Below, in pieces: positions 3,176-51,112 of a stretch of 64,000 nt of DNA. Below the pieces are notes generated by a model that had not been told where the DNA came from, searched no databases, and worked only from the letters and a program-made list of their open reading frames with translations. Source of the DNA: Candidatus Nomurabacteria bacterium RIFCSPLOWO2_01_FULL_39_18 (lineage in GTDB: Bacteria > Patescibacteriota > Minisyncoccia > Phycocordibacterales > UBA9973); contig MFUV01000005.1 of assembly GCA_001787005.1 (NCBI GenBank), positions 2,764 to 66,763 of the forward strand, in the 5' to 3' direction. The position numbers and the translations under genes were made by a program. Numbering within the stretch: the first letter of the stretch is position 1; each line of letters opens with the position of its first letter.

Positions 3176-5329
3176 ATGGAGACACAAAAAGCAAAACCGG
3201 AGTTGAAATTTCACATTCATTACAATGACACGATCTTTTATGAAGGAAAAACTTACAAGGTGGTAGAACTTCCCAGCTGGGAGAATGACAATAGATATAG
3301 GCTGACAAGCCCAGGCTTGCCGGATTTTAAGCTTAAATATACAAAATTACAAGAGGCGTTGGAAAGTGGGAAAGCTGTTTTCGTTCAAACTATTCCACCC
3401 AAAGTACAAGAAGAGGTAGAAAAATACAAAAATCCTGAAACCTTTAGGGTAAAAACCGACAGAAAGAAAACAAAACCTAAAAACGAAGTTGCAAGGTTTG
3501 TTTCGCCTGAAATAAAAAAATTAGAGGAACGTCTTAGGGTAGACAGAGTTAGGCGCATACACCTTCAAGAAGAAGCAAGAGAGGCTTTTGATAGGGGTGA
3601 CTTGTCCAAAGCAAGAAGATTAAACAGCGAAAGCCTTACTCCAATGGAGAAAGATTTGTTTAATTTCTTTGACGATAGAAAACGAGAAATTCCAGCAGAT
3701 ATACTGTCTTTAAATGAAAAATTTAGCCAGATGAGCTATCGTCTTGAATATGATCTGAAACGAAAAGAAGAAGCTTTGGCCCAAGAGCCTACGTTAGTTA
3801 CACTAGAAACAAAAATTCCATGCGCTGTCGTGGAAGATCAGATTAGGCTTGCTCTTTCGTCTCACCTTGAAAACCATGGGAAAATAGAGGAGTTAAAAGT
3901 TAAGGGTGTAGGAGATAAAATAATAATAGGAGCAACAATAATTACACGTAGCTCGATGATGACCTTTAGTCGTGAAGTAAGGGTGACACTTGAGAACAAA
4001 GATACCGGCATTGAAGTGAAAAATGAGATGGAAAAGGAAGATTTTGTTTTTTTAATTAGATCAGCCATTGAAGGTTTGAGGGAAGAGATAGCAGAGAAAG
4101 TAATGTTGGAGGGTTTAGAAATTAAAAAAATAGAGATTAGGAATGGAGAATTAGTGGTAACTTCCGGCGCGCCAGAAACATCTGCTCCTACTCCAGAAAC
4201 AGCACCTGCTCCCGTAGAGTGGACAGAGGCAGATGAAGAAGAATTGCGGAGAATTGAAAAGAAACTTAAGGAGATAGAAGAGCAAGAGATGTTGGAAACC
4301 GGAATTTTTACACCGGAGTTTGTGGGAGAGAGAGTTAAATTTATCCTAGAGTCTTATGTCTTTGGACAGGGGTCAAAAGCAGTTATAAAAGTGGAGAGTC
4401 TAGCTACTGAAGGCAAAGATAATGCAATAAAATTGACTGGAAAGTTAACAATCTCGGATCATCGGGGCAGCCCAAATCAAAATACTGTTGAAAATATTGA
4501 CACAATTCTTGTGAATAATGTTAAAAAAGGTGAAATCCCTATTGTGGCAAGCGGCGATTTGGTATTTATCCTTGGCGACAGAGGTGAAGTCGTTCCCAAT
4601 GGAATAAAAAAATATATAGAGGAAAAAGGAGGGCGAGAAGTTGAGACAATGAAGATTGAAGATGGAAAGCTGGTGGTGGAGTTTAAGGTACCTACTGGAC
4701 CTGATACTGGAGTGCAAGAGGTAGAAATTCTTACGCCACCAACAGAAACAGGAGAAGGGGTGGGGCTTGATGCCTCGATTTCTCCACCCAGCGTTCCGGC
4801 AGAAACCGCCCCATCTTCCTCGCCTGTTCCACCGCCTGTGCCGGAAGTTAAAAGGGGGCCAGAGGTAGAAATTTTTCCAACGAAGTTTATAGAAGATACA
4901 ATTAAAAAACTTCTCGCCTTTAAAAAAGACAGCAAGCTTGAAGGTGGGGGGGAAGAGGAGAAAATAAAGGTTGGAGAAGTTAAGGGTTTAGAAATTAAAG
5001 GAAAAGGTGGTGAAATAATTCTAAATGCAAAAGTTAATGTGGAGATGAAGGTACCAGGGACAGAAAAAACTGTAACCAGTGATGTTGGAATAAAAGTAGT
5101 TCTTGGAAGTAAAAATAACATTATTGTGGTAAAAAATTGCGAGATTAAAGCAAATGTTAATATGATTATTGATCGGATTCTGAACCCACTTCTGGTCCAC
5201 TTCGTCAAACCACACCTTGAAAAAATTTCAGAGACATTAAAGTCTTACATTGAAGACAACGATCCGAAAAGAAGAAAAGTTGAAAAAATGGAAATTGAGA
5301 ATGGTCAATTGAAAGTTACGTTTAAATAA
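3176..5329 (+). CDS. Hypothetical Lys/Glu-rich protein containing two copies of a ~120-aa module shared with the next gene
   Basis: 717-aa ORF starting after a TATAAT at 3158. Internal repeated module ending ...RKVEKMEIENGQLKVTFK. A Pro/Ser/Thr-rich linker. Confidence 0.6.
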   Translation: METQKAKPELKFHIHYNDTIFYEGKTYKVVELPSWENDNRYRLTSPGLPDFKLKYTKLQEALESGKAVFVQTIPPKVQEEVEKYKNPETFRVKTDRKKTKPKNEVARFVSPEIKKLEERLRVDRVRRIHLQEEAREAFDRGDLSKARRLNSESLTPMEKDLFNFFDDRKREIPADILSLNEKFSQMSYRLEYDLKRKEEALAQEPTLVTLETKIPCAVVEDQIRLALSSHLENHGKIEELKVKGVGDKIIIGATIITRSSMMTFSREVRVTLENKDTGIEVKNEMEKEDFVFLIRSAIEGLREEIAEKVMLEGLEIKKIEIRNGELVVTSGAPETSAPTPETAPAPVEWTEADEEELRRIEKKLKEIEEQEMLETGIFTPEFVGERVKFILESYVFGQGSKAVIKVESLATEGKDNAIKLTGKLTISDHRGSPNQNTVENIDTILVNNVKKGEIPIVASGDLVFILGDRGEVVPNGIKKYIEEKGGREVETMKIEDGKLVVEFKVPTGPDTGVQEVEILTPPTETGEGVGLDASISPPSVPAETAPSSSPVPPPVPEVKRGPEVEIFPTKFIEDTIKKLLAFKKDSKLEGGGEEEKIKVGEVKGLEIKGKGGEIILNAKVNVEMKVPGTEKTVTSDVGIKVVLGSKNNIIVVKNCEIKANVNMIIDRILNPLLVHFVKPHLEKISETLKSYIEDNDPKRRKVEKMEIENGQLKVTFK

Positions 5330-36768: not shown

Positions 36769-37052
36769 AGGTGTATCTACTTTCTGGATCATCATCTTCT
36801 GGTTCAAAGCCGGGCATTTCTTCGAGTGGGATATTTGGGTCGAATGACTCTTCATCACCGTCCACCTTAAACCCACTACTTATTTCTTCATCTTCATCGT
36901 AACTCATATAAAATTATTTTTTTCCGCCAGGGGCGGATCCGCCTTGGGCGGAAAATTTTTTAAACGACCAAATTATATTTATTTCCCAATTTCATACTTT
37001 GTAACAAAATATAAATCGCTTGGCAATAGCAAAAAGACCAAAAGTGTGGATA

Positions 37053-45575: not shown

Positions 45576-46318
45576 GAGCTTTAGACTCTCACTGCGAGTT
45601 ATGATATAGTAAGATACATGCGGAAGGAACCACTAATAACGGGAGAGTATTACCATATTTATAATAGAGGCGTAGATAAGCGAGATATTTTTAATAATCT
45701 GAAAGATCTCGAGCGTTTTAAAGAAAGCATAAAACAATTTAATCAAATTGAAGGCATTGGTAGTTTAGAAATGTACAATAAATCAATAAGAGCTTTAGGC
45801 TCTCACCCCGACAGTTATCTGAAATTAAAATCAGAACCACTTGTGGCTATCATTGCTTTTTGTATCAACCCCAATCATTTTCATTTTCTTATTAAACAAC
45901 TTGTCGACGGCGGGATAGCTAAATTTTTTCAAAAACTTCAGGGTGGGTATACTTATTATTTTAATCAAAAAAACCAGAGATCGGGGGCACTACTTCAGGG
46001 GACTTTTAAATCTAAATTAATTAAAAATGATGATTATTTCAGAAAAACATTTGCATATGTAAATCAAAATTATTCTGTTCACAATATTCCTAAAAGCAAA
46101 CTTCCTTTTATTTTTGCAAGTGACACGGAATATGAAAGCGAGCTTTTTAATTTAGTGTCAAAGTCTGAAGGACAAAAGATGCTAGACATTTTTGAAGGTA
46201 AGAATAATCTTAAAAAACATTGTAAAGAAATTATATCAATTATTCGAGAAGAACGGGGGAAAACTTCCCTAGAAGAACCGGATGAATTATTTCAGTGAGA
46301 GTCTAAAGCTCTCACTGG
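45576..46318. mobile_element. IS200/IS605-type (RAYT-like) unit: Y1 HUH transposase gene flanked by 20-bp perfect inverted repeats
   Basis: Left AGAGCTTTAGACTCTCACTG (45576-45595) and right CAGTGAGAGTCTAAAGCTCT (46294-46313) are exact reverse complements. The right flank itself forms a 9-bp-stem hairpin. Confidence 0.6.
45618..46298 (+). CDS. IS200-like / REP-associated tyrosine transposase (HUH Y1 family)
   Basis: YHIYNRGVDKRDIF..ERF, HuH motif NPNHFHFLIK, and YFNQKNQRSGALLQGTFKSKLIKNDDYFRKTFAYVNQN (catalytic Tyr region). These align closely with IS200 TnpA blocks. Confidence 0.8.
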   Translation: MRKEPLITGEYYHIYNRGVDKRDIFNNLKDLERFKESIKQFNQIEGIGSLEMYNKSIRALGSHPDSYLKLKSEPLVAIIAFCINPNHFHFLIKQLVDGGIAKFFQKLQGGYTYYFNQKNQRSGALLQGTFKSKLIKNDDYFRKTFAYVNQNYSVHNIPKSKLPFIFASDTEYESELFNLVSKSEGQKMLDIFEGKNNLKKHCKEIISIIREERGKTSLEEPDELFQ

Positions 46319-46911: not shown

Positions 46912-47607
46912 ATGATTTATCTTTTTTCTGGCGATGATGTGAAGAATAAACACCTCTCTTACGAGAAGTTTATAAAATCCCTGCCTGCGCAGGCAGGTAT
47001 TCCAGCGAATACTGAAACCTTTTTTATAAACAGAAATGATTTTAATAGGAATCAGATAGAAAGTCTTTATTCTGGGTCAGGTCTTTTTTTCGAAGATTGC
47101 GTAGTGGTATTCCAAGATGTTTTCGAGAGAGAAGAAACTCGAGAATTTGTTTTAGAGAAGTTGGATTTAATGGGCAAATCTTCCAGCTCTTTTGTTTTTC
47201 TAGAAGGTAAATTAAATAAACCGATTCTAGATGCTTTCAAGAAAATCGAGCCAAAAAAACTCCAGATTAATATTTTCGAATTACCGAAAGAAAAAAAGGA
47301 GAAATTCAATAATTTTCTTCTAGCCAATGCTTTTGGAGTTAGAGATAAATTAAATCTTTGGATTTATTTCCGGCAAGCTGTCGACCTCGGGGTGGGGATG
47401 GAGGAGTTGATCGGAGTACTTTTCTGGAAAATCAAGGATATGCTAATAAAAAAAGATTTCCGCAAATTCTCCGAAGCAGAACTTAAAAATTCCGCCTCTC
47501 GCCTCTCCTACCTTTTACCAGAAGCCCGCAAGGCTAGTCGTGACGCCGAAGCAGTCTTTGAGCAGTTTTTGCTTGAAGCTTTTTTAAAGAGTACTATAAT
47601 TAAGTAG
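46912..47607 (+). CDS. Hypothetical protein, possibly a short DNA polymerase III delta-subunit-like (HolA-like) protein
   Basis: N-terminus MIYLFSGDDVKNKHL resembles HolA starts. Contains the in-frame 18-nt palindrome CCTGCCTGCGCAGGCAGG (LPAQAG) at 46980-46997. The ATG abuts an inverted-repeat right arm. Confidence 0.35.
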   Translation: MIYLFSGDDVKNKHLSYEKFIKSLPAQAGIPANTETFFINRNDFNRNQIESLYSGSGLFFEDCVVVFQDVFEREETREFVLEKLDLMGKSSSSFVFLEGKLNKPILDAFKKIEPKKLQINIFELPKEKKEKFNNFLLANAFGVRDKLNLWIYFRQAVDLGVGMEELIGVLFWKIKDMLIKKDFRKFSEAELKNSASRLSYLLPEARKASRDAEAVFEQFLLEAFLKSTIIK

Positions 47608-47632
47608 TCGGTATCGGGGGGTGTAAAAATCA

Positions 47633-48239
47633 ATGCCTCAACTATATTTTTTGATTTACTGGGCACTTTCGGTTTTTCTGTTTTGGGTGCTTACGCAGCG
47701 GAGAAAAGGGGCTTCGACATTTTTGGTGTTTTTGTCTGCGCTTTTATTAGCGGTGTTGGGGGTGGTACAGTAAGGGAATTCTTCCTAAATGGTTTACCGG
47801 CCTACTTTATTAATTATGATTATCTGCTTGTAATATCTCTTGCTACGATTTTTACTATAGTATTTTTAGAAAGTTTGAGAAAATAAAATATTGGATATTG
47901 GTGATGGATGCGGTTGGTTTAGCAACTTTTGCTTATGTCGGTGCCGCACGGGCTATGGCAGAAAACCTAGGATTTTTGGGGGTTGTGATGTTTGCCATAA
48001 TAACTCCCGCTGGTGGTGATGCCATACGATCAGTTATATCAAGGGAAGTTCCTGCCATTATGTATCGAGACGTATATGCCACCCTGGCGATGCTGTTTGG
48101 TATCGCCTATTTTCTATTGAGGGATTTTAAAGACAATGTATGGGTAGTTTATATTTTGCTTTTAATTATTTTCATTTTGCGTTTATTGGCAATTAAATTT
48201 AATTGGCAGTTATGGGAGCCAAAGAAAAGTTATAAGTGA
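47633..48239 (+). pseudogene. TRIC/UPF0126 (YadS-like, two Gly_transporter repeats) membrane protein gene interrupted by two 1-nt frameshifts in homopolymer runs
   Basis: Three frames together encode MPQLYF|FDLLGTFGFSVLGAYAAEKRGFDIFGVFVCAFISGVGGGTVREF...ESLRK|IKYWILVMDAVGLATFAYVGAARA..GGDAIRS, which is collinear with YadS-type proteins. The frame shifts fall in the T6 run at 47647-47652 and the A4 run at 47880-47883. Confidence 0.6.
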
Positions 48240-48248
48240 TCAGAACTG

Positions 48249-48321
48249 TGCGCCCGGTTGGGATCGAACCAACGACCTTATCCTTAAAAGGGATCTGCTC
48301 TACCGACTGAGCTACGGGCGC
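48249..48321 (-). tRNA. tRNA-Lys (anticodon UUU)
   Basis: Cloverleaf: acceptor GCGCCCG/CGGGCGC; D-arm GCTC-AGTCGGTA-GAGC; anticodon loop CTTTTAA; T-arm GTTGG-TTCGATC-CCAAC. No encoded CCA. Confidence 0.9.
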
Positions 48322-48578
48322 ATGTGTTTTATTAAATTTTTAACAAATTCTCTACCCCTAAAACTTTTTAATTGTCGCTCCCTTTTTATGGCTTCAGTTC
48401 TCGTGGGGAATGCTTCTTTATGGATCAATGCCCACGGACCCCTATTTTGCAAAGTGAACTTACCTAAATGATCACCCCCGTTACTATTATGCTGTTTTAG
48501 TCTGCTATCTATATCGATAGTTTGACCTATATATATCTTATCAGAGGTCTGACTATAAATTGCATAAACTGTGAACAT
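48312..48578 (-). CDS. Small GIY-YIG nuclease-domain protein (UPF0213/YhbQ-like)
   Basis: VYAIYSQTSDKIYIGQTIDIDSRLKQHNS matches the GIY-YIG motif. 88 aa. Its last 10 nt, including the TAG stop, are nt 1-10 of tRNA-Lys. Confidence 0.75.
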   Translation of the reverse strand: MFTVYAIYSQTSDKIYIGQTIDIDSRLKQHNSNGGDHLGKFTLQNRGPWALIHKEAFPTRTEAIKRERQLKSFRGREFVKNLIKHMRP

Positions 48579-48585
48579 AAATTTT

Positions 48586-48628
48586 TCTGCTCTACCTCTG
48601 CCAGCTGGCGGATGAGCTACGGGCGCAT
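48586..48628 (-). repeat. Partial duplicate of the tRNA-Lys 5' end (nt 1-14 and 18-28), with a 17-nt palindromic insert in the D-loop position
   Basis: gatgagctacgggcgcat and tctgctctacc match the tRNA. They are interrupted by tctgccagctggcggat, which is related to the 18-bp palindrome at 1623-1640. The copy lies 7 nt upstream of the GIY-YIG ATG. Confidence 0.5.
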
Positions 48629-48829
48629 CTTGTGATAGTATAAGAAATAAGGCTAAAAATCAAGAAAAATGGTAATATATTAGTATGTTTAAGATCAGCA
48701 AAACGTTGTTGTGCTTTCTAATTTTAACGATAGTAAGTTCTTTGTTTGCTTACACTATTATAGTAAAAGCATACGAAAATGCATATCCCGACTATTTAAT
48801 CCAATAAATTTTCGTGTTAAGGTGTAACT

Positions 48830-51112
48830 ATGACTCAAGGTATTTTCAAGTTGCATAGCCCATTTAAACCAGCTGGCGATCAGCCTGTGGCTATTTTAAA
48901 GCTCCTTGATGGATTAGAGAAGGGCATGCAAAAACAAACTCTGCTCGGGGCAACTGGCACAGGCAAGACTTTTACCATGGCAAATGTGATAGTAGAATAC
49001 AATAAGCCGACATTGGTAATAGCGCACAACAAAACCCTTGCGGCTCAACTAGCTCAGGAATTCAGAGAATTTTTCCCAGATTCCGCGGTGCACTATTTTG
49101 TTTCCTACTATGATTATTACCAACCAGAAGCTTATATGCCGACAACGGACACTTATATAGAAAAGGATGCGCAGATAAACAAAGAAATAGATCGTCTTCG
49201 TCATGCTTCAACCCAAGCGCTTTTGACTAGACGAGATGTTATCATTGTCGCTTCCGTGTCTTGTATTTATGGTTTAGGTTCTCCAGAAGAATATGAAAAA
49301 GTTAATTTAAAAATTAAACTTGGTATGAAAATGGAGAGGCTGACTCTGATGAAACGTCTGATTGAAATTCATTTCGAACGCACAAATGCTGATCTTACCC
49401 CAGGGACTTTCCGATCTATCGGCTCTTGGGTAGAATTTATGCCAGTGTCAGAGACAATAATGTACCAGATTGAAATAGATGATGGGGCTGTCTCAAAAAT
49501 AACCAAAATTGATCCAATTTCTTCTCAGATAATAAAAGAAGAGAAAGATGTTTTTATTTTTCCGGCCAAGCATTTCATCACAGAAGATACGAAAAAGAAC
49601 AAAGCCCTGATTGAAATTAAGAAAGAACTCGCATTGCAATTAAAAAAGTTTCAGAAAGAAGGCAAGTTGCTTGAGGCAGAGCGGATAAAGCGCCGGACCA
49701 ATTACGATCTCGCCATGATCAAGGAAGTTGGTTATTGCAGTGGCATCGAAAATTATTCGCGACATTTATCAGGTAAACAAAAAGGCGAACCGCCAGAAAC
49801 CTTGCTCTCTTATTTCCCCCATACTGGAGATGGCGAACCTGATTTTCTTACCATCATTGATGAATCCCACGTAACTCTGCCTCAACTAGAAGGTATGTAT
49901 GCGGGCGATGCTTCACGCAAAAAAACCCTTGTAGAATATGGTTTTCGCCTGCCTTCAGCTAAGGATAACCGGCCTCTTAAATATGAGGAATTTCAGAAGC
50001 GCATCGGTCCAGTAGTTTATACCAGTGCGACGCCCGGAAAATACGAAATAGAAGAAAGTAAAAAAGAATGTGAACAAACTTGCCCCGCACGAAGTACTCT
50101 TTCGTGCGGGGTCGTAGAGCAAATAATCCGACCAACCGGGCTTGTCGATCCAGAGACAATAGTTCGACCAGTGAGTGCAAATTCTCCTCTTGAGGAGTAC
50201 CCGAAGGGGGAGGTGGATGAATTTTCCACCCCGTCTCGCAAGCGATCCACTCCTCAAGAGGGGAATAAATACCCCGGCCAGATTCAAGATTTTATAAGTG
50301 AAGCAGAGAAAACAATTAAAAAGGGTTTTCGAGTTCTAGCCACCACACTAACAAAAAAAATGGCCGAAGATCTGTCTCTTTATCTCAAAGACCTGCCTGC
50401 GCAGGCAGGCAAGAAAATAAAATCAGAGTATCTGCATAGTGATATAAAAACTTTGGAAAGAATCCAAATACTTTCAAAGTTTCGCAAAGGTGATTTTGAT
50501 GTTTTGGTGGGAGTAAACTTGCTTCGCGAAGGGCTTGATTTGCCCGAAGTGGCGTTAATTGGGATTCTCGATGCAGACAAAGAGGGATTTTTGCGCTCAG
50601 AAACATCTCTTATCCAAACCATCGGGCGTGCCGCGCGCAACAGTGAAGGGAAGGTAATTCTCTATGCAGATGTTATCACTGGCTCGATGAATAAAGCGCT
50701 AGCCGAAACTGCTCGTCGTCGGGATATTCAGCTCACCTATAATAAAAAGCACGGCATCACCCCCAAGACGATAATAAAAAAGATAAAAGATATTACCGAA
50801 GAATTCGAAAGTGAACATGGAAAAGCTGTAAATGCAGAATTAAAACTTGATGTGGAAATATTCCGTAGAGCTTACAAAAAAGAACTGACTAGACCACTTA
50901 AACCAAAAGGTTTAGGCGAATCGCATCTCTCTGATCAAGAAATAGAGGCATTAACCTATGAGAAAATAATAAAAATAAAAGAAAAAGAAATGAATCGAGC
51001 CGTGAAAGAGCTGGATTTCGAAACAGCGGCCATACTTCGTGATGAAATTAGAGTTTTGTCTCAAAAAACTGTTTACGGTACCGGCAATAAAACAAAAAAT
51101 GTAGTTCCTTGA
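48830..51112 (+). CDS. uvrB: Excinuclease ABC subunit B
   Basis: Walker A GATGTGKTFT, beta-hairpin region, helicase motifs, and a C-terminal UvrB/UvrC interaction domain (EIEALTYEKIIKIKEKEMNRAVKELDFETAAILRDEI). At 760 aa it carries about 90 aa of GC-rich in-frame inserts (50082-50116, 50176-50281, 50392-50409). Confidence 0.95.
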   Translation: MTQGIFKLHSPFKPAGDQPVAILKLLDGLEKGMQKQTLLGATGTGKTFTMANVIVEYNKPTLVIAHNKTLAAQLAQEFREFFPDSAVHYFVSYYDYYQPEAYMPTTDTYIEKDAQINKEIDRLRHASTQALLTRRDVIIVASVSCIYGLGSPEEYEKVNLKIKLGMKMERLTLMKRLIEIHFERTNADLTPGTFRSIGSWVEFMPVSETIMYQIEIDDGAVSKITKIDPISSQIIKEEKDVFIFPAKHFITEDTKKNKALIEIKKELALQLKKFQKEGKLLEAERIKRRTNYDLAMIKEVGYCSGIENYSRHLSGKQKGEPPETLLSYFPHTGDGEPDFLTIIDESHVTLPQLEGMYAGDASRKKTLVEYGFRLPSAKDNRPLKYEEFQKRIGPVVYTSATPGKYEIEESKKECEQTCPARSTLSCGVVEQIIRPTGLVDPETIVRPVSANSPLEEYPKGEVDEFSTPSRKRSTPQEGNKYPGQIQDFISEAEKTIKKGFRVLATTLTKKMAEDLSLYLKDLPAQAGKKIKSEYLHSDIKTLERIQILSKFRKGDFDVLVGVNLLREGLDLPEVALIGILDADKEGFLRSETSLIQTIGRAARNSEGKVILYADVITGSMNKALAETARRRDIQLTYNKKHGITPKTIIKKIKDITEEFESEHGKAVNAELKLDVEIFRRAYKKELTRPLKPKGLGESHLSDQEIEALTYEKIIKIKEKEMNRAVKELDFETAAILRDEIRVLSQKTVYGTGNKTKNVVP
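50082..50116. repeat. Perfect 11-bp-stem GC hairpin (ccccgcacgaa-gtactct-ttcgtgcgggg) inside uvrB
   Basis: Translated as TCPARSTLSCGV, between conserved blocks where other UvrB proteins have no such segment. Confidence 0.55.
50176..50281. repeat. About 105-nt GC-rich element with inverted terminal repeats inside uvrB
   Basis: tcctcttgaggagt (50177-50190) and actcctcaagaggg (50264-50277) are inverted copies of each other. The element encodes NSPLEEYPKGEVDEFSTPSRKRSTPQEGNKYP between the conserved IVRP and GQIQD.. blocks. Confidence 0.55.
50392..50409. repeat. 18-nt self-complementary element CCTGCCTGCGCAGGCAGG inside uvrB (LPAQAG)
   Basis: Identical 18-mer at 46980-46997 in an unrelated gene, where it also reads LPAQAG. 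Degenerate copy at 55495-55512 in uvrC (LPTQAS). Confidence 0.6.

Follow-up and report, generated by a model that had tools for sequence, protein, structure and literature searches.

Why should a gene for a small GIY-YIG protein end inside a tRNA gene and begin just behind an interrupted copy of the 5' part of that same tRNA? The question is raised by a locus of Candidatus Nomurabacteria bacterium RIFCSPLOWO2_01_FULL_39_18, of the Candidate Phyla Radiation (CPR)/Patescibacteria, lying in a 64-kb stretch of DNA of 38.7% GC that was analysed as a whole and is here called the window. Read along the minus strand, the locus consists of nt 1-14 of tRNA-Lys, a 16-nt palindrome, nt 18-28 of the same tRNA, 7 nt more, an open reading frame (ORF) for 88 aa and then an intact tRNA-Lys(UUU). 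The answer favoured here, held to be probable but with real room for doubt, is that this is a selfish cassette of the homing type, one that would use tRNA sequence as homology arms, capture the tRNA promoter and regenerate the tRNA.

A nuclease gene between two copies of a tRNA 5' end

The intact tRNA-Lys (anticodon UUU) occupies 48249-48321 on the minus strand (Rfam RF00005, 70.7 bits, E=6.5e-15; the ARAGORN call, also minus strand, is 48248-48321) and its CCA is not encoded. The ORF, at 48312-48578 on the minus strand, specifies a stand-alone GIY-YIG protein made up of the catalytic domain only (Pfam PF01541, E=3.9e-18) and 100% identical to protein A3A95_00395. Its final 10 nt are nt 1-10 of the tRNA, and its TAG stop codon is nt 8-10 (48312-48314). 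Ahead of the ATG a reading of the sequence gives the A/T spacer AAAATTT (48579-48585, minus strand), and the same A-rich spacer precedes the ATG in the cassettes closest to that of the window (L081-L087). The spacer connects the ORF to a tRNA-derived leader, which comprises a post-hairpin segment GGTAGAGCAGA (48586-48596, minus strand), an exact copy of tRNA-Lys nt 18-28 and so an 11-nt direct repeat of 48294-48304, then the hairpin itself (48597-48612, on the minus strand TCCGCCAGCTGGCAGA), a 16-nt near-palindrome that replaces tRNA nt 15-17, and a pre-hairpin segment (48613-48628, minus strand), an exact copy of AT plus tRNA-Lys nt 1-14 and a 16/16 direct repeat of 48308-48323. An earlier note on this DNA, made from its letters alone, had reported the tRNA, the ORF, the 10-nt overlap, the duplicate and the 7-nt spacer, and all of these are present as described by Rfam, ARAGORN, Pfam and the direct repeats. 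The interrupting palindrome it reported is likewise present, at one base less than the 17 nt given, the seventeenth being A14 of the tRNA, and its reservation that the duplicate might align better to another tRNA is answered by an exact match to tRNA-Lys over 25 of 25 nt.

Both direct repeats are in register with tRNA-Lys, and an exact 16-nt repeat within 1.2 kb would be expected by chance with an estimated frequency of about 1e-4. AT likewise precedes G1 of the tRNA in L150, a relative in which the site is empty. The best explanation of 48613-48628 is that the 5' end of the original tRNA gene has been orphaned here, with the promoter region still ahead of it. There a −10-like hexamer, TATACT (48637-48642, minus strand), is read 10 nt ahead of pseudo-tRNA nt 1, and is a candidate for the native tRNA promoter, now perhaps driving leader, ORF and tRNA together. 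A terminator scan of the locus found none, an Rfam E-value scan of 47500-49500 matched only the tRNA and no intron, a search of the 64 kb for a second GIY-YIG gene found none, and the PADLOC and PHROGs libraries gave motif-level matches only.

The arrangement recurs. Loci were compared from species-representative genomes (80, the best 80 of at least 447 relatives) and from metagenomes (69), 149 in all, and counts were made on 130 full-length relatives, from CPR/Patescibacteria plus a few Bacteroidota and Ignavibacteria. A same-strand tRNA follows the ORF directly in 86 of the 130, being Asn-GUU in 42, Lys-CUU in 20, Lys-UUU in 13 and other types in 11. According to the overlap table 64 ORFs terminate within the tRNA, the overlap being exactly 10 nt (stop at U8-A9-G10) in 44 loci, 21 nt in 8 and 38 nt in 4. 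The family hairpin stands at most 110 nt upstream of the ATG in 88/130, and both the downstream tRNA and the upstream hairpin are found in 73/130. The earlier note had held that the same overlap seen in relatives without any duplicate would speak for a conserved operon, and what the relatives have is an overlap accompanied nearly always by duplicate and palindrome (73 loci). Although acceptor stems vary between loci, the pre-hairpin copies match their own tRNA, perfectly and from nt 1 in 50 of the 73. Beyond the hairpin the tRNA copy continues for 10-28 nt, followed by a short A/T spacer and the ATG, with a conserved hairpin-to-ATG spacing of 10-43 nt, and the typical cassette ORF has 82-90 aa and usually no stop codon of its own. 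The hairpin joins the tRNA copy at a few positions, from nt 13/14 to 17/18 in about 34 loci, the window's included, from nt 22-25 to 31-34 in about 20, from nt 8 to 12 in 4 and from nt 10 to 24/25 in 5, and junction class, tRNA type and protein clade covary.

Variants of the layout are seen as well. A mirror arrangement, with the real tRNA first, then the ORF and then the hairpin-interrupted copy, occurs in Bacteroidota, Ignavibacteria and some CPR (L059, L063, L066, L088, L119). L001 and L083 have additional pseudo-tRNAs with hairpins on the far side of the real tRNA. L012 has, downstream of its real tRNA-Lys, one pseudo-tRNA-Lys copy with two cassette hairpins (4340-4420), and L074 has tandem pseudo-tRNA-Lys copies of 99-nt period with up to three hairpins each (4330-4520), the hairpins of these two loci standing at nt 8/12, at nt 23/32 and in the T-loop. 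More distant GIY-YIG clades adjoin tRNAs for Pro, Glu, Thr, Val, Asp and Met, and there an intact tRNA copy is paired with a copy broken by a different GC-rich hairpin: CCCCGCC-TGT-GGCGGGG in place of the D-arm, TCCCGA-TATTA-TCGGGA in place of the anticodon arm, a double hairpin inserted cleanly at tRNA position 35/36, or a 49-nt insert at 10/11. The general rule is an intact tRNA copy and a copy with a clade-specific hairpin, the ORF lying between them.

Three simpler schemes were tried on these layouts and rejected. A target-site duplication of fixed length does not agree with duplicated leaders that range from 0 to 52 nt. Nor does one insertion that split a single tRNA and left a hairpin at each end agree with L083, whose two pseudo-copies, one upstream and one downstream, have theirs at different tRNA positions. 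That the hairpin is a mini-intron removed by splicing was rejected for the main classes because 3-14 nt of tRNA are replaced there and excision would not give back a tRNA. As a separate observation, in 17/80 loci the end of the contig is reached within 600 nt on the downstream side of the ORF, and in 3/80 on the upstream side (binomial p=0.003), which suggests repeats or strain-level polymorphism on the tRNA side of the cassette, breaks on that side being expected of a repeated or polymorphic site.

Partial duplications at a tRNA gene call to mind an integrative element, since tRNA genes are classic integration sites that acquire them, and the locus could be what is left of such an element or of a tRNA intron, the ORF being a leftover of the island or an intron-encoded endonuclease. 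Group I introns (RF00028) do lie directly behind the ORF in four loci, L026 (4266-4498), L061 (4264-4514), L080 (4284-4525) and L051 (4635-4879), which seemed tRNA-less and in fact hold intron-containing tRNA-Asn genes missed by ARAGORN, and the syntenic loci L021 and L026 differ by the presence of the intron. Intron-containing tRNA-Asn genes of this kind are common in Patescibacteria, as reported in a study that makes no mention of an upstream ORF, duplicate or hairpin (PMC13011429). However at the window locus Rfam finds no intron and the real tRNA is uninterrupted, no integrase gene is present between uvrB and the Gly_transporter gene, the duplicated part is the 5' half of the tRNA (nt 1-28) and not its 3' part, the whole insert of about 305 nt is essentially the ORF alone, and the compact layout is repeated in more than 70 loci. 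An element or intron remnant is thereby largely refuted, and is considered very improbable indeed.

Empty sites, unrelated flanks and mosaic junctions

Whether such a unit moves, or simply descends with its tRNA, can be asked of the two closest relatives retrieved, L150 and L151, whose UvrB is 84% identical. They keep the same gene order (a PEMT-like gene, a holA-like gene, tRNA-Lys(UUU) and uvrB), with the tRNA oriented as in the window in L150 and inverted in L151, and at their tRNA-Lys locus neither has the ORF, the duplicate or the hairpin. This is the comparison that the earlier note had recommended, and the empty tRNA-Lys at the same locus bears out its proposal of an element, with a GIY-YIG cargo that would suit homing, which entered the tRNA gene within its 5' half and regenerated the tRNA intact, so that the insertion reading is supported; the result is a presence/absence polymorphism at a conserved target, as with homing-type elements.

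Further, cassettes of 82-87% DNA identity, alignable over the full distance between nt 1 of the pseudo-tRNA and the 3' end of the real one, sit in unalignable flanks in four pairs of loci (L021/L032, L024/L037, L015/L018 and L007/L018), where in a genuinely syntenic pair (L021/L026) the flanks are themselves 72-78% identical. Mosaic tracts are found too. The segment that follows the hairpin in L020 and L022 agrees not with the adjacent tRNA but with the tRNA-Asn found in other genomes (L038, L077), and in L015 and L016 it is the acceptor part of the pseudo-copy that is foreign while the post-hairpin part matches. Unrelated contexts and mosaic tracts thus join the empty sites among the homing-type features of these loci, and by such sequence comparisons the cassette is accessory and mobile.

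The same data have to be set against a host-beneficial unit in which a small repair nuclease of the Slx1/UPF0213 kind is co-transcribed from a tRNA promoter behind an RNA-level regulatory leader, is inherited vertically, and has its leader kept in step with the tRNA by gene conversion; in such a unit the leader might act as a 5' stabiliser, as an RNase site or as an autoregulatory site bound by the protein. Conservation of the ORF-tRNA overlap and of the 10-43 nt hairpin-ATG spacing would suit this, as would the link between protein clade and tRNA type, which holds although the proteins have diverged by about 50%, and the strong conservation of the protein (16 invariant columns in an alignment of 49 homologues). 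Some pairs of loci are syntenic and apparently vertical, L021/L026 and also L002/L031, which is syntenic over 7 kb, and in L003, L006, L058 and L068 a 13-52 nt 5' leader is duplicated, which fits in-situ duplication or conversion. However the cassette is absent at the same locus in L150 and L151 and from all but a fraction of CPR genomes, and its flanks can be unrelated and its junctions mosaic. The mirror layout puts the hairpin downstream of the ORF and the extra hairpin-bearing copies lie past the real tRNA, so the hairpin is not bound to a 5' untranslated region; its loop variants occur in both orientations, and the leader RNA does not fold unusually well. Overall a co-transcription unit of benefit to the host seems unlikely.

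The neighbourhood of the cassette has some irregularities of its own. Between the holA-like gene and tRNA-Lys a Gly_transporter (PF03458) gene is split into two plus-strand ORFs (47683-47886 and 47898-48239). It is not at that position in L150 or L151, which makes a second difference at the locus, and an exact-sequence lookup of the Gly_transporter ORF gave no match. On the other side UvrB (48830-51112, plus strand) has 760 aa with extra low-complexity stretches such as EYPKGEVDEFSTPSRKRSTPQEGNKYPG. In L150/L151 the ORF calls divide uvrB into two or three pieces, and many UvrB entries from CPR carry the label 'partial'; these irregularities may be further small insertions or frameshifts.

The hairpin as a part of the cassette

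What then is the palindrome? The family consensus TCCGCCAGCTGGCGGA, that is TCCGCC-AGCT-GGCGGA, is a perfect 16-nt palindrome found in exact form in 53/85 upstream hairpins, next to proteins that are only about 50% identical. When variants were picked by similarity to the consensus alone, complementarity not being required, the distinct variants yielded nine compensatory double changes of stem pairs and six single-sided changes, as against no double change that was non-complementary; stems include TTCGCC/GGCGAA, TCCGGC/GCCGGA, TCCGCT/AGCGGA, TCCGTC/GACGGA and CCCGCC/GGCGGG. Pairing, and not merely sequence, is therefore under selection. One variant, TCCGCTG..CAGCGGA, is found in a single protein clade only, from which it follows that the hairpin descends with its ORF. 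Variant loops are found in either orientation (AGCC/GGCT, AACT/AGTT), which a symmetric DNA element fits better than an RNA loop read by a protein; a comparison of G.U with C.A mismatches in imperfect hairpins, meant to tell RNA-level from DNA-level function, counted 5 G.T and 3 C.A among only 13 cases. The window's hairpin has one C.A stem mismatch from a G-to-A change, a destabilising change by which this copy may be starting to decay even though its ORF is intact. The earlier note had also entertained a 'decayed' tRNA duplicate, and that is not simply the case, as the palindrome is a conserved and covarying component of the cassette. Most likely the hairpin serves the cassette either as a structured DNA site for the nuclease or as an insertion that makes the spare tRNA copy a non-target.

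Palindromes of this type are also met alone. A solo and perfect copy of the cassette palindrome, ATCCGCCAGCTGGCGGAT, lies at 1621-1638 between two convergent genes, for a ZIP transporter (766-1515) and an M23 peptidase (1678-2823), with no tRNA-like flanks and no Rfam match; the earlier note had seen this second copy and put it at 1623-1640. Solo copies are present in several related loci too, some apparently within genes. Hairpins with the cassette stem and 3-nt loops occur in the window at 36923-36952, where TCCGCC-AGG-GGCGGA and TCCGCC-TTG-GGCGGA stand in tandem between T/A runs upstream of a small minus-strand ORF. Elsewhere TCCGCC-GCA-GGCGGA and TCCGCC-ACA-GGCGGA, again with 3-nt loops on the cassette stem, interrupt pseudo-tRNA-Lys in L083 and L086.

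These solo copies, at 1621-1638 and in the related loci, would suit a palindrome independent of the ORF, like repetitive extragenic palindromic (REP) sequences or miniature inverted-repeat transposable elements and possibly moved by a REP-associated tyrosine transposase (RAYT), with the spare tRNAs coming from nuclease-provoked segmental duplication of the SegB type and no integrated cassette existing at all. Other small GC-rich palindromes of this genome do insert even into coding genes. An 18-nt perfect palindrome, CCTGCCTGCGCAGGCAGG, is identical at 46980-46997, in the holA-like gene, and at 50392-50409, in uvrB, and compared with close homologues is an in-frame insertion of 6 aa, read as AQAGIP in the holA-like protein and as LPAQAG in UvrB, so that in this genome very small GC-rich palindromes apparently move about and can be accommodated by coding genes. 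A RAYT-like Y1 transposase gene is found 2.3 kb from the cassette (45618-46298, plus strand, 226 aa; Y1_Tnp 30.8 bits against a cut-off of 23, with an HFH motif of HUH type and NCBIfam REP_Tyr_transpos below its own cut-off), the pseudo-tRNA copies downstream of the real tRNA in L012 and L074 carry up to 3 hairpins, and SegB-driven amplification of a tRNA locus has been published (PMC13096335). However the same 16-mer accompanies the ORF across CPR lineages, Bacteroidota and Ignavibacteria, hairpin variants follow protein clades, junction positions are discrete and clade-specific, and distant protein clades own distinct hairpins. The 149 GIY-YIG loci contain no RAYT homologue, and RAYT as the partner of the cassette hairpin was rejected on that ground, although the protein could be the partner of the genome's other palindromes. 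A hairpin that travels independently of the nuclease gene is thus considered quite unlikely.

The nuclease and a possible route of spread

The protein match to PF01541 scores 65.9 bits against a cut-off of 22.6 and covers residues 2-72 of 88. Catalytic residues, whose retention the earlier note wished to see checked, are kept, with Y5, Y16, R26, H30 and E67 invariant in the 49 homologues. A profile search of the PDB ranked the bacterial UPF0213 proteins EF2693 and BH0048 first and SLX1 after them (E-values of 1.3e-6 for 1ywl, 2.1e-5 for 1zg2, 1e-3 for 4xlg and 1.2e-3 for I-TevI). The AlphaFold model (predicted local distance difference test, pLDDT, 92) is one compact domain of alpha/beta fold, and in Foldseek it matched 1zg2 (UPF0213 BH0048) at 7.7e-4, Slx1 (6seh) at 8.7e-4 and I-TevI at 0.22, the fit being better to BH0048 and to structures of the branched-DNA nuclease Slx1-Slx4 than to the catalytic domain of I-TevI. 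By profile and model the 88-aa protein would be a GIY-YIG enzyme of the catalytic domain only, closest to Slx1/UPF0213 rather than to intron-type endonucleases, and neither the Pfam match nor the model leaves room for a DNA-binding module such as I-TevI and SegB have. The family extends to 1,586 clusters at 50% identity (E<=1e-10), nearly all of 80-125 aa. IMG/VR viral contigs held no full-length relatives of the protein, and INPHARED and PLSDB gave distant matches only, of about 33-38% identity, two of which span at least 86% of the query, so as far as these searches go the family is chromosomal and not borne by phages or plasmids.

How a homing-type cassette of this sort would work can be sketched. 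The two tRNA-derived segments would be portable homology arms, by which the cassette could be copied into the cognate tRNA gene of genomes with unrelated flanks through break- or nick-stimulated recombination, much as in homing, the nuclease stimulating transfer by cutting or nicking. One intact tRNA would always be left after insertion. The orphaned 5' fragment would retain the tRNA promoter and so place leader, ORF and essential tRNA on one transcript. RNase P cleaves at tRNA 5' ends, and because the ORF stop lies inside the mature tRNA, such processing would yield a non-stop mRNA, which would limit nuclease output; the overlap of ORF and tRNA would also penalise imprecise deletion, as lethal.

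Several points weigh against this sketch. Nuclease activity of the family is predicted only, and a protein devoid of a DNA-binding domain does not account for classical long-site homing specificity. The D-arm of the intact tRNA is the same as that of the empty-site L150, so that self-immunity is not accounted for if the tRNA gene is the target. The left homology arm, of only 8-25 nt, is short for RecA-type recombination. The 13-52 nt leader duplications resemble an in-situ event and not import, the L002/L031 synteny indicates long-term vertical inheritance with the tRNA in some pairs, and the absence of the cassette from L150/L151 could equally be precise loss via the direct repeats. A consensus promoter scan found no canonical promoter directly before the pseudo-tRNA, the spacer to a TTGATT being 15 nt. 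The stem mismatch weakens the window's predicted DNA hairpin from -5.9 to -1.4 kcal/mol, and the leader RNA folds no better than shuffled sequences (z = -0.41). The strong conservation of the hairpin sequence is also left unexplained by a homing-cassette model.

A further idea is that the hairpin-bearing tRNA fragment is the specificity module of the nuclease and the whole a nucleic-acid-guided or structure-guided mini homing system. The conserved hairpin, in extruded DNA or as the handle of a co-transcribed tRNA-like RNA, would be bound by the GIY-YIG protein with its catalytic domain only, and the tRNA-derived sequence on either side would base-pair with the target and so lead the cut to cognate tRNA genes. 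TnpB/IscB omega-RNA systems offer a conceptual parallel, with a different nuclease fold. Such a module would explain why the sequence beside the hairpin follows the local tRNA, why variants of the hairpin evolve in step with the protein clades and how a DNA-binding domain could be dispensed with. It is none the less judged distinctly unlikely.

Among known systems the T4 SegB protein, a free-standing GIY-YIG homing endonuclease of a phage tRNA cluster, has its gene among or next to tRNA genes as here (PMC2330249, PMC13096335). SegB cuts the tRNA region of relatives that lack the endonuclease, spreads by co-conversion and provokes segmental amplification of the tRNA locus. It is much larger than 88 aa and carries a DNA-binding domain. 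In contrast to the cassette it is phage-borne, its ORF does not end inside a tRNA and it has no hairpin-interrupted partial tRNA copy. The Slx1/UPF0213 proteins (YhbQ, EF2693, BH0048) resemble the cassette protein in size and fold and are its best sequence and structure matches, although the similarity is modest (profile E about 1e-6) and neither tRNA linkage nor a cognate hairpin is described for them; Slx1, which needs Slx4, acts on branched and stem-loop DNA as a structure-specific nuclease. Islands and prophages of the integrase type also insert inside tRNA genes, bring a replacement segment that keeps the tRNA intact and leave a partial direct repeat. They depend on a tyrosine integrase, leave the 3' end of the tRNA in duplicate and run to kilobases, whereas in the cassette of about 0.3 kb the 5' part is duplicated, the GIY-YIG nuclease is the sole protein and the spare copy is interrupted by a hairpin. 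In collaborative homing, as with the free-standing F-CphI and the psbA intron of cyanophages, the endonuclease gene is beside its target and a separate insertion protects that target, but the insertion is a splicing intron in a working gene and not a 16-nt hairpin in a non-functional spare copy. The four loci with introns (L026, L061, L080, L051), where an endonuclease gene is beside an endonuclease-less intron, resemble that system.

In CPR rRNA genes GIY-YIG ORFs are reported in inserts that are neither group I nor group II introns, which puts GIY-YIG genes inside structural-RNA genes of the same bacterial group (PMC11270868). There it is the rRNA and not the tRNA that is entered, neither target duplication nor a conserved hairpin is reported, and the authors place the inserts outside homing (PMC11270868). 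REP/RAYT and IS200/IS605 systems share a short GC-rich palindrome, a single small nuclease gene and scattered solo palindromes, and differ in their HUH Y1 transposase partner and in having no tRNA scaffold; RAYT is moreover absent from cassette loci. GC-rich palindromes form the yeast mitochondrial GC clusters (PMC4478555), and in Neurospora mitochondria PstI palindromes flank tRNA genes (Yin et al. 1981, via PMC4478555). The fungal palindromes are conserved and mobile and stand next to tRNA genes in AT-rich genomes that have GIY-YIG genes, but they are organellar, longer, outside tRNA copies and not known to have a fixed link to one nuclease ORF. A catalytic-only nuclease, a hairpin in a partial copy of the target and an ORF ending on a tRNA are combined in none of these nearest systems. 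In the open-access literature no description of the arrangement or of the palindrome string and no characterised member of the family was found, and an earlier description elsewhere is possible.

If the homing-type cassette is the right account, it would be a very compact self-contained mobile unit of about 0.3 kb, built of a single catalytic domain of 88 aa, a hairpin of 16 nt and homology arms taken from the target gene, that has solved the invasion of an essential single-copy gene by rebuilding the gene. It raises the questions of how a nuclease lacking a DNA-binding domain finds its site, whether small GC-rich palindromes are substrates of Slx1-like bacterial nucleases and whether a stop codon shared with a tRNA couples translation to RNase P processing. 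Were the nuclease directed by the hairpin or by RNA, an enzyme of 88 aa would interest tool builders, and if the hairpin-tRNA fragment does guide it there is a small chance of a categorically new system. The finding also touches a recent conclusion, by which the tRNA introns of Patescibacteria are without homing endonucleases, given that free-standing endonuclease genes lie directly upstream of some intron-containing tRNA-Asn genes. For the CPR/Patescibacteria themselves it would explain a feature that recurs in their genomes and has gone without remark, namely ORFs of small size annotated as 'hypothetical' or 'GIY-YIG family' and joined to tRNA-Asn and tRNA-Lys, together with the pseudo-tRNA debris and the contig breaks at such loci.

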